Below are positions 40,601-43,600 of a stretch of 64,000 nt of DNA, piece after piece; position 1 is the first letter of the stretch; each line of letters begins with the position of its first letter. A program made the position numbers. This DNA comes from Escherichia coli (GTDB taxonomy: Bacteria > Pseudomonadota > Gammaproteobacteria > Enterobacterales > Enterobacteriaceae), in the NCBI RefSeq assembly GCF_030013595.1, contig NZ_CP122768.1. One strand, written 5' to 3'.

Positions 40601-43600
40601 CAGGCAATCTTTGGTGCCATTCCCGCGCCTAAGCCCAGCGACGTGGCAGCCAGACTACAATATTTGAGAAAGCTGCGCCGGGTAACGCCCTGACGCCGCA
40701 TGGCCTGGTAAAATGTTTCCTCGTTATTCATATCGCACGTCTCTTCTCCTTGCGACACCGGCAGGACACCGGGCGCTTATGGTCGGCAAGCGACGTCCCT
40801 GTAGCAAGGCAAACCATCGCTTCACGTGAGATGCTGAAAACGAAAGCTCATCCTTCTGCACTGGCGCACGTCGCCAGAAAGTATTGTTAATAAAGCGTAG
40901 TGAAACTTTTGCACAAAACAATACAAACTGTATGGATTTATCTTTTAGCGATAAAAATGGACCTATTTTTCTTTTTGCCGGGCAGTGGGGATGTTTAGCC
41001 GGTTGCTAAACGAGTAAAAGAGAAGGAATTCATGGTGATGAAATGATCAATCTGCTGTTATTTCACGCTATCAATGCACTTTTGTCTGTTTTTCAGGCAA
41101 ACAAACAAATTAGGGGTTTACACGCCGCATCGGGATGTTTATAGTGCGCGTCATTCCGGAAGTGTGGCCGAGCGGTTGAAGGCACCGGTCTTGAAAACCG
41201 GCGACCCGAAAGGGTTCCAGAGTTCGAATCTCTGCGCTTCCGCCAAATAATCAAGGGGTTACCAAATGGTAACCCCTTTGCTTTTTGGGCTCTTGGTATA
41301 AACTTGGTATACCAATTGGTATATTTTCTGCCAAAAAATTCCTAAAATCCCCTCCAGCACAAACAATCACTTGCTCATTCATACTTTATCAAGAAAATAT
41401 CCTTGCAAGTTATGTTGTTTCTTTCTGCGTCCCGACAGGGTGTCATGGTTCCCCACTTCTCTCGGGATGGACACTTAACGGACGAGAAATTTTCAGGTGT
41501 CATTCAGACGCGCTTCGGCCCCGGATTGGCGAAGCGCGCTTTTTTTCTCAGATTATTTCGTTTTGCCTGAGTGTTGAATAACGCCACTACAGTTATATAA
41601 GCTGGAAATCATTCAATACTCGCACTATCGAAAGTTCACCAGCCAACCGCAGCACGTACTGCATACGTCGTGTCTGCGGTTTTTCTTTTTCACTTACATT
41701 GTGTCTGGTTCTTCCGGCCACACAATATCCGGTGCTACTGATGTATCAACACGGTTCAGCAACACCCGATACTTTTTCCAGGCTTCCAGCAACGAGTTTT
41801 CTTCCTCCGTTGCGATCTCCAGATCTACAGCATCCTGAAGTGGCGCAATATGCTCACTGGCTACCTGCATCAGGCTGTTTTTTGTTTCTTCCGCCTCCCG
41901 GATCCGGAACAGTTTTTCTGCTTCTGCATCTTTCACCCAGGCTGTGCCGTTCCACTTCTGAAACTCCCCTTCCGGCGATAACCAGGTAACATTTTCCGGT
42001 AACGGACCGAGTTCAGAAATAAATAACGCGTCCCCTGACGCTACGTCATAAACCGTTTTACCCCGATGGTCTTCAACGAGATGCCACGATGTCTCATCAC
42101 TGTTGAAAACAGCCACGAAGCCTGCCGGAATATCTGGCGTTGCAATATCGGTACTGTTTGCTGGCAGACCTGTATGAGGTGGAATGTATGCATCACCTTC
42201 ACCAATAAATTCATTAGTTCCGGCCAGCAGATTATAAATTTTTATGGTCCGTGCTTGTTCACTCATTCTGAATGCCATTATGCAAGCCTCACAATATAGT
42301 TAAATGCGATGTTTTTGACGGTGTTTTCCGCGTTACCAGCAGCGTTAACGGTGATGGTGTGTCCATGTGAGCCAATCGCAACAGAGTGCGTATGAGCACC
42401 AATACCGACAGTATGTGCGTGAGCACCTGCAGATGCAGCTGTGCCGCTGACACTATGAGTGTGCGCTCCTGCAGCACTTGTATTCACACTGGCCGCAGAC
42501 ACTACCTTATGTACTGACCCATTTTGTGACCACTGGCTGACTGCTGATGCGCCTGTGACACTATGAGTATGGTTTCCGGCACTTGCGGCTGTACCGCTCA
42601 CACTGTGCGTATGCGCCCCGGTGTTATTCGTGGATTTAGTGCCGTAATCAAACGACGATGTGGTTTTCGTCCCCAAATCCGTACTGGATGCGCTGGCGCT
42701 GTGGGTGTGCGATTTAATGCCGTCCTGTTCCTGAGACAATACGGCCCGACCACTGGCAGGTTTGCCCTTAATCGTCCAGCCACGCATATCAGGGATCACG
42801 CCTGACGGATAAGCGGCTGCAAGTTTCGGGTATGCAGATTTGTCAAAAGTCTGCCCCTGCATCAGGGCATAACCAGACGGAACGGTATCTGATGGCCACG
42901 GGATTGGTGCACCGACTGGGTAGCTTTCTGGTGGAAGATTTTTCGAGGTATAAACTTCTGCCCAGTCTTCCTCAAAACCATAACCGTCTCTTGAAGAACG
43001 GTAGAACAGACCACCATTTCTGTAATGCGCCTTCATCTGCAGGGTCCGGCAACTTCCGACTCCGGTATAGAAGTTAACCAGAATATAGCTGTTGCCTGTC
43101 CGGGTGACATTGTATGCACCAGATTTAGCATTCCACGGAACGCCTCCCTCTGACTCTGCGTGCACACCAGACGATCCAAGAGCAAAAGCAGAGACATCTG
43201 CAGCGGACAGCCTGATGTCTGATTTCAATGCCTTACCATTCACCTTACGACCAGATGGAACCCGGTCATTTGCATTATCATTCACCGCTTTCACCGCCAT
43301 TGGTGTTGCCGCCAGCGATTCACTGTCACTGTCCGTGGCACTGCTGAGCTGTACCACCCCCTTTCTCGTCGTGCTCGCATCCTCTAGCGCCACGGCAGAT
43401 GCAATATCCTCTGCCCGTTTTGCTGCTGTCTCGGCACGCGTTGCTGCAGATTCCGACGTACTTTTGCTCTGAGCTGCCGCTGTCGCACTACCAGCTGCCT
43501 CTGTCGCCTTCGTGGATGCCGTCGTGGCACTGACCTTCGCCTCTGACGCCTGTCTTACCGCCTCATCTTTTGAAGCAGACGCCGATGATGCTGATGACGC

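Follow-up and report, generated by a model that had tools for sequence, protein, structure and literature searches.

The general model of heterobivalent tyrosine integrases, together with an E. coli case at a tRNA gene, that of KplE1 IntS at argW, has been described previously (PMC2951348). In the KplE1/HK620 system, a prophage resides in a tRNA gene of E. coli and has a heterobivalent integrase, a recombination directionality factor (RDF), and tandem P' arm-type sites located beside the tRNA 3' end (PMC2951348). In attP of phage lambda, our scan returned, in this order, three sites of one orientation at intervals of 10-11 bp (P'3, P'2, P'1), then H', the core and H2, then the inverted P2, H1, and finally P1, which again has the orientation of the P' sites. 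Here, we analyze three copies of the octamer TTGGTATA that follow the tRNA gene serT in a 64-kb stretch of the E. coli contig NZ_CP122768.1 (hereafter the window). With a probability of roughly 0.8, we regard these repeats as P'-like tandem arm-type integrase (Int) sites of a lambda-family prophage of the CP-933M/Sp4/phage Evi type that is inserted at serT, a reading that rests on sequence comparisons and on the analogy with lambda. We are thus dealing with a known class, lambda-type arm sites, in an uncharacterized lineage: a description of these sites was not found in the literature, nor was an experimental characterization of the att sites of phages ST64B, KpF5, mEp390 and vB_EcoS-689R5 (hereafter 689R5) or of related IMG/VR loci, all of which encode related integrases. 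The sole mildly novel aspects are a family of attachment sites with conserved positions and variable motifs, and an att cassette that is inverted relative to int.

Exact plus-strand copies of TTGGTATA occupy positions 41293-41300, 41304-41311 and 41316-41323 of the window, with start-to-start spacings of 11 and 12 bp; the first two are directly preceded by a C and read CTTGGTATA, and the sequence around the repeats is ...gggctcTTGGTATAaacTTGGTATAccaaTTGGTATAttttc.... Repeat 1 begins 8 bp past the T-run of the hairpin terminator behind serT. That three identical octamers with 11-12 bp spacing follow this terminator had been noticed in an initial sequence-only reading, and the exact copies and their coordinates bear this out. 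The same reading proposed that the repeats are phased on one face of the helix; a spacing of 11-12 bp is only roughly helical. Relatives show repeat spacings of 10-13 bp, with the outer copies constant at 23-24 bp apart. Apart from a fourth, overlapping and inverted copy (41308-41315, minus strand), the window contains no further exact match to TTGGTATA. This inverted copy exists because TTGGTATACCAA is a palindrome and, given that relatives do without it, probably arose incidentally from the spacer sequence; it is absent from the related loci L088, L062 and L063, even though the same octamer is present there in triplicate. The features of this region are given below, one per line; attP positions are counted from the center of the anticodon loop in the tRNA-sense direction, and the attP layout of the window has been reconstructed from the two prophage junctions.

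41158..41245, plus strand: serT, tRNA-Ser(UGA) (ARAGORN; Rfam tRNA match of 57.5 bits)
41186..41250, unstranded: 65-bp identity block, the att core region (window compared with L004 25524-25588 and with K-12, L001)
41186..41200, unstranded: anticodon stem-loop CGGTCTTGAAAACCG, whose inverted repeat flanks a loop of 7 nt; putative core-type Int site pair and strand-exchange region
41249..41261, plus strand: AATCAAGGGGTTA, an exact match to the consensus WATCAANNNNTTR of the integration host factor (IHF); proposed H' equivalent between core and repeats
41251..41285, plus strand: phage-supplied serT terminator (terminator scan), with a hairpin at 41253-41278 (11 pairs) and a T-run
41292..41300, plus strand: repeat 1, cTTGGTATA, at +100 from the anticodon-loop center; proposed arm-type Int site, P'1-like
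41303..41311, plus strand: repeat 2, cTTGGTATA, at +111; proposed arm-type Int site, P'2-like
41316..41323, plus strand: repeat 3, TTGGTATA, at +123; proposed arm-type Int site, P'3-like
41308..41315, minus strand: inverted octamer copy within TTGGTATACCAA, overlapping the repeats

Comparison with prophage-free DNA locates the repeats. To the left of serT lie the hyaABCDEF genes and to its right a lambdoid prophage that runs off the window, with its tail-fibre assembly, tail-fibre, lom and J genes on the minus strand. E. coli strain HCP5S3_I2 matches this region at 100% identity. In prophage-free K-12, yccA directly follows serT and no TTGGTATA is found downstream of the tRNA gene, as would be expected if the octamers came with the prophage. 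A 65-bp block is common to the host attB, the int-proximal junction and the phage attP (phage Evi has the same block); it begins four bp into the anticodon stem, on its 5' strand, and stops 5 bp beyond the tRNA 3' end. Judged by this shared sequence, the crossover must lie inside 41186-41250. To the right of the block, the window reads ATCAAGGGGTTACCAAATGGTAACCCCTTTGCTTTTT and K-12 reads AGATAAGGGGTTAGCTAAATGCTAACCCCTTTTTCTTTT. Because of this difference, the serT terminator of the lysogen is phage DNA; it is a diverged copy of the similar host terminator that it replaces (K-12 L001 3351-3390), and apart from 1-2 substitutions it is the terminator of the Evi attP. Where the phage terminator creates AATCAAGGGGTTA, the K-12 attB has other sequence (AGATAA; AGATAAGGGGTTA). 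The 3' part of serT in the lysogen either derives from phage DNA or is identical to it. The int-distal junction is consequently made up of the host serT 5' half, the 65-bp core, the phage terminator with its IHF consensus, the three sites, and variable cargo. Since the junction falls within serT and the apparent serT terminator is phage DNA, the repeats are, by this comparison, prophage DNA and lie inside the prophage. The sequence-only reading therefore has to be corrected in two respects: it had taken the terminator to be that of serT itself, and it had placed the repeats between the tRNA gene and the prophage end.

The anticodon loop corresponds to 41190-41196, and the identity block starts 4 bp into the anticodon stem, as it likewise does in the attP of ST64B and KpF5. 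As the phage-host identity runs from there through the tRNA 3' end, the tRNA gene is restored upon integration. When set against published classifications, the serT att site would thus belong to the anticodon-loop class of tRNA integration sites. The core sequence CGGTCTTGAAAACCG is unrelated to the TTGGTATA motif.

These comparisons also bear on the notion that the repeats are a host feature of serT or a functionless duplication that arose by chance or slippage. The repeats are short and AT-rich, and the number of octamer copies in the whole window is, taken by itself, not extreme, with 4 copies reached in 5 of 100 shuffles. Their clustering, in contrast, is rare: three identical non-overlapping octamers within 40 bp occur only here in the window and were seen in just 2 of 300 local-composition shuffles. 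Moreover, K-12 and most E. coli genomes lack the repeats despite having serT, and the position of the triplet is conserved across integrase relatives that carry other motifs. On the strength of these comparative sequence data, we consider a chance or host-feature origin excluded, with next to no likelihood left to it.

The other end of the prophage lies outside the window, about 45 kb further on in the source genome (L004), where the gene order is exonuclease, a DUF4224 Xis-like gene (xis) directly upstream of a tyrosine int gene, a 141-bp arm reaching from the int stop codon to the core, the 65-bp core, and yccA. This int-proximal arm contains one exact CTTGGTATA (L004 25412-25420) 30 bp past the int stop codon. 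The octamer is thus found near int at the far end as well, which together with its absence from prophage-free K-12 supports the att-arm interpretation of the sequence-only reading, and the same motif is present on both arms. The site is exact in Evi, in loci L024, L039, L050, L017 and L032, and in O157:H7, even where its flanks vary; in L034, it reads CCTGGTATA and differs by a single T-to-C change. Both arms are joined as an intact attP in phage Evi (LR597642.1), whose Int is 99.4% identical, in the order int stop codon, arm with CTTGGTATA, serT 3' part, terminator, and the three repeats. The same order is found in the intact attP of the IMG/VR locus L024. In both attP sites, the repeats and the core thus form one contiguous stretch; the K-12 attB has no such repeats.

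The L034 variant (2515-2790), which is rare, carries CCTGGTATA in both arms, and its Int has the N-domain substitutions N7D, A12V, E29K and G36K. Variants of this type occur in 3 complete genomes; in the one inspected (L093 793-3370; NZ_CP169309.1), the single-copy variant flanks a prophage remnant of about 3 kb with truncated lom and int genes.

The encoded Int comprises 339 residues and can be aligned by phmmer with lambda Int over residues 1-318 versus 1-339 (E = 2e-17; 24% identity), the arm-binding N-terminal region included. Pfam recognizes the catalytic domain alone. An AlphaFold (AF2) model built from 17 homologues (mean pLDDT of 84) places strands at residues 17-19, 23-26 and 35-39 ahead of a helix at 45-60, with a pLDDT of about 86 for residues 17-60. 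Three strands followed by a helix are the architecture of the lambda Int N-domain. The best Foldseek matches to the model are the full-length lambda Int structures 1z1b, 1z1g and 5j0n, over approximately 350 aligned columns. Alignment and predicted structure concur that Int is a lambda-family heterobivalent tyrosine integrase of the same fold with an N-terminal arm-binding domain, and not the non-lambda integrase that the sequence-only reading had envisaged.

The arrangement of the putative sites likewise resembles that of lambda. An IHF regular expression that recovers H', H2 and H1 in lambda attP, which served as a positive control, has three matches in the window, one of them at 41249-41261; at the level of consensus matches, IHF sites thus lie between the arm sites and the core at +56 and at -91. 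The layouts of the window lineage and of its relatives compare as follows.

Window, Evi and L024: single site at -118 (-117 in L024), same orientation; IHF consensus at -91, exact (1 mismatch in L024); no inverted site; IHF consensus at +56, exact; tandem sites at +100, +111 and +123
ST64B (motif TGAGAAAA): single site at -117; no distal IHF consensus within 1 mismatch; inverted site at -54 (1 mismatch); IHF consensus at +57, 1 mismatch; tandem sites at +101, +111 and +124
KpF5 (motif TGAGAAAA): single site at -117; IHF consensus at -91, 1 mismatch; inverted site at -54; IHF consensus at +57, 1 mismatch; tandem sites at +101, +111 and +124
mEp390 (motif TTCGCCAT): single site at -119; IHF consensus at -92, exact; inverted site at -54; no proximal IHF consensus found; four tandem sites, +126 to +157

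Lambda, to which the same scan was applied, shares the order and orientation P1-H1-(P2)-core-H'-P'1-3. In both systems, one arm carries at its outer end three tandem sites of the same orientation that are spaced by about 11 bp and separated from the core by an IHF consensus, the opposite arm has a single site in the same orientation beyond a second IHF consensus, and the att module ends just past the third tandem site. By sequence and layout, the window triplet most likely corresponds to lambda P'1-P'3. The lambda motif (C/A)AGTCACTAT differs from the putative sites TTGGTATA described here, and the lambda tandem sites are found at +55 to +85, whereas those of the window are at +100 to +130, because the core here is formed by the 3' portion of a tRNA gene, and the crossover probably takes place in the anticodon loop. 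In KplE1/HK620, the integrase belongs to another lineage and the motif, with a conserved TAAA, is another one. Since int adjoins the tRNA gene there, the P' sites and the intS promoter overlap, whereas the triplet in the window is far from int.

ST64B, KpF5 and mEp390 share with the window a tRNA fragment starting within the anticodon stem, a site at -117/-119, IHF-like sequences at -91 and +57, and three or four tandem sites, which start 44-49 bp past the tRNA 3' end in ST64B and KpF5 and further out in mEp390. They differ from it by unrelated motifs, by the inverted copy at -54, and by an int gene beside the tandem-site arm. The last point sets the lineage of the window, Evi and O157 apart: its int adjoins the single-site arm, and its tail-fibre and cargo end lies next to serT. 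In lambda, where int adjoins the P' arm, and in every relative examined, int adjoins the tandem-site arm. Relative to int, the window lineage thus has its att cassette the other way round. This inversion and the lack of a visible P2-like site are the unusual points of the lineage.

Across the integrase relatives (ST64B, KpF5, mEp390, 689R5 and IMG/VR loci; Int 43-76% identical), the positions of the sites are kept within about 1 bp, in some cases with other motifs. For prophage-end loci, only the tandem arm can be compared, and the whole attP was compared for ST64B, KpF5 and mEp390; most IMG/VR loci end at the int stop codon and are uninformative for the arm, and in L058, L059, L065, L066, L073 and others int is followed by unrelated genes. 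Relatives with 63-65% identical Ints at serU (L062-64) or serT (L088) carry the same octamer in their tandem arm, with three tandem TTGGTATA copies in the same orientation relative to the tRNA gene (the first copy in L062 is TTGGTATG, with one mismatch) that begin 46-49 bp past the tRNA 3' end. The motif is TTGGAATA in 689R5 (55% identical Int) and TTAGAATA in L060 and L061 (70-72% identical Int). Hence, TTGGTATA, TTGGAATA, TTAGAATA, TGAGAAAA and TTCGCCAT are found at the same positions, and the motif changes with the Int lineage. A strand of the Int N-domain reads YSYVWKP in the TTGGTATA and TTGGAATA groups, YSYFWKP in the TTAGAATA group, SGYYWKP in the TGAGAAAA group, and SAYEFRTP in the TTCGCCAT group.

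This covariation has to be weighed against the possibility that the repeats bind the RDF, that is, the DUF4224 Xis-like protein, instead of Int. The gene for this protein immediately precedes int, RDF sites commonly take the form of tandem direct repeats, as exemplified by lambda X1-X2 and the TorI sites of KplE1 (PMC2951348), and Xis is linked to att and varies between lineages as well. Yet both arms carry the motif, and relatives have it in either orientation in the P1/P2/P'1-3 pattern of lambda Int sites, whereas lambda has its Xis sites on one arm only. Nor does the motif follow the Xis type: 689R5 combines an ST64B-type Xis with a window-type motif, and motif distance correlates with Int identity (rho = -0.74) far better than with Xis identity (rho = -0.23) over about six lineages. 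A further comparison concerns L060 and L061, whose Xis similarity to the window equals that of L062. The C-terminal part of their Int is closer to that of the window (74-76%, versus 65% for L062) and their N-domain is more distant (52%, versus 63% for L062), and it is their motif that differs. These sequence relationships are suggestive of Int, probably its N-domain, as the reader of the motif in preference to Xis, and neither an array confined to one arm nor a specificity that follows the RDF was observed. We therefore consider binding of the RDF improbable.

Several observations weigh against the assignment of the repeats as lambda-type arm sites of Int, or at least against its details. The identities of the Int N-domain and C-domain correlate equally well with motif distance, and the separation of Int from Xis is suggestive but not decisive because Int and Xis are linked to each other and to att and the comparison comprises only about six independent lineages. 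In L024 and L039, the IHF consensus at -91 contains a mismatch, and in L061 and L088 that at +56 has 1-2 mismatches. An inverted P2-like site (-54), present in ST64B, KpF5 and mEp390, was not found in the window/Evi/L024 lineage; nor is an H2-like site recognizable there, so that the P2 and H2 elements that complete the lambda arrangement are not seen on the single-site arm. A second site in the int-proximal arm at -74, CTTGGTGTC (L004 25456-25464), was considered and rejected, as it reads CTAGAGGTT or CTAGGTGTT in L024 and L039. Finally, the L034 variant has one copy alone in its tRNA-side arm; this says little about function because the variant is part of a prophage remnant in the strain inspected. 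Separately, two-mismatch matches at -51 and -33 in the int-proximal arm were rejected since they are not conserved.

A 90-bp phage-side segment containing the repeats is present in 702 of 5426 complete E. coli genomes, in 701 of these 702 at an identity of at least 95%; in a separate count, the int gene with its arm was found in 749 of the 5426. Similarity to the window ends 4-5 bp past repeat 3 (41327-41328) in O157:H7, Evi and L024, and 37 of 40 alignments of genomes sampled evenly from the 702 end at this very position. At least three unrelated sequences lie beyond it, and O157:H7, Evi and L024 each have a different one. The cargo that follows differs as well: O157 has an espV fragment together with tccP2, Evi has an espV fragment, and the window has an unannotated region. 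As similarity stops just past repeat 3, this repeat is the outer edge of the conserved att module, like lambda P'3, and such an edge in turn explains why the cargo diverges exactly beyond it. The O157:H7 element is a prophage of the CP-933M/Sp4 type with espV and tccP2 as cargo; in strain EDL933, CP-933M is reported to sit between serT and yccK (PMC5552260).

The proximity of the cargo raises the question of whether the repeats might be operator or promoter elements of the adjacent cargo (espV/tccP2 in O157, the unannotated region in the window), or the repressor or iteron sites that the sequence-only reading had offered as an alternative. The repeats are AT-rich and contain TATA, and the espV fragment starts about 20 bp downstream in O157 and Evi. 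However, the downstream sequence varies among lineages while the repeats remain constant, and relatives, in which cargo is absent, have the same triplet in the interval that separates the tRNA end from the int stop codon. No sigma-70-like promoter was predicted at or beside the repeats, which led us to reject the promoter reading, and the immunity and replication genes are located more than 40 kb away in the far part of the prophage. The repeats are thus found beside neither a regulated promoter nor a replication origin, and we regard a role as operators or iterons as very unlikely.

Taking the triplet as arm-type Int sites, the lambda analogy lends itself to a simple working model. Each Int protomer would bind one TTGGTATA site through its small N-terminal domain, and IHF would bend the DNA at about +56 to +68. 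Through this proposed bend, the sites at +100 to +130 would fold back over the core, where the C-terminal domains of the same Int molecules would bind and cut at the anticodon stem-loop. In the int-proximal arm, the single copy at -118 and the IHF consensus at -91 may take the parts of P1 and H1. Formation of the excisive complex in the lysogen would require the triplet along with IHF and Xis, the DUF4224 protein. We infer from this analogy that Int and IHF bind and that the DNA bends, where the crossover takes place, and which part each site plays in integration as opposed to excision.

A broader evolutionary scenario can be put forward only tentatively, as we deem it rather doubtful. In this scenario, the blueprint is fixed to within about 1 bp while the motif drifts from TTGGTATA and TTGGAATA to TTAGAATA and TGAGAAAA in step with the N-domain strand (YSYVWKP, YSYFWKP, SGYYWKP), and the window lineage has flipped its att cassette and lost the P2 equivalent. 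If this were true, the relatives would provide a natural specificity-swap series for the way in which lambda-type N-domains read arm sites, and the serT lineage would build its excisive complex with a set of arm sites different from that of lambda.

The integrase and its att module are present in about 13% of complete E. coli genomes, O157:H7 included, where tccP2 and espV lie beside the repeats in CP-933M/Sp4. An attP that is defined with respect to its core, its arms, its probable Int and IHF sites, and its outer edge at 41327/8 helps to delimit these prophages precisely, and integration vectors or excision assays can be designed directly from the attP map. While our data confirm a textbook lambda-type architecture, the map of positions across the family and the series of motifs provide a modest resource on arm-site recognition.

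Several side observations were made in the course of this analysis. Phage PPompW_132418 (LC567822.1) contains, at L006 2440-2680, a decayed relic of a whole serT-type attP that consists of a degenerate tRNA fragment, a terminator, TTGGTATA, TTGGTACA and CTGGTATC, and the int-arm-like GTTGGTACA. This relic lies in the locus for type III secretion system effectors (espO, nleG, espM) of phages that integrate at ompW, which suggests that the att-plus-cargo region moves between lambdoid phages. Within the int-proximal arm, an 11-bp direct repeat, TGATTTTTCTT, occurs twice (L004 25448-25458 and 25503-25513, at about -83 and -28) and shows little variation among eight variants of the arm; the RDF or another accessory protein may bind there. 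Directly 3' of repeat 3, TTTTCTGCCAAAAA (window 41324-41337) is specific to the cargo variant of the window and is absent in O157 and Evi. A near-identical and near-palindromic sequence, TTTTCTGGCAAAAA (L004 25396-25409), is found 2 bp before the -118 site; the likeness of the two may be fortuitous or may reflect a scar of recombination.

Between the att arm and the tail-fibre assembly gene tfa, the unannotated region 41329-41693 contains two terminator-like hairpins on the plus strand, each with a T-run (41507-41546 and 41647-41684), and it may encode a small transcript. Its portion 41600-41691 (about 90 bp) is present in 3025 of the 5426 E. coli genomes, where it is mostly unannotated. Apart from the tRNA and sub-threshold noise, an Rfam scan of 40800-41800 returned nothing but a partial IS009 match (RF02111; 41737-41800, minus strand) in the 3' part of tfa; this match, which the search boundary cuts, reaches only 54 bits against a gathering score of 117. 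Outside the window, the annotation of the same prophage lists a ParD/ParE toxin-antitoxin pair and a DNA methyltransferase (L004 12659-13221 and 7591-8676), as well as immunity genes of the RacR, YdaS and YdaT types.

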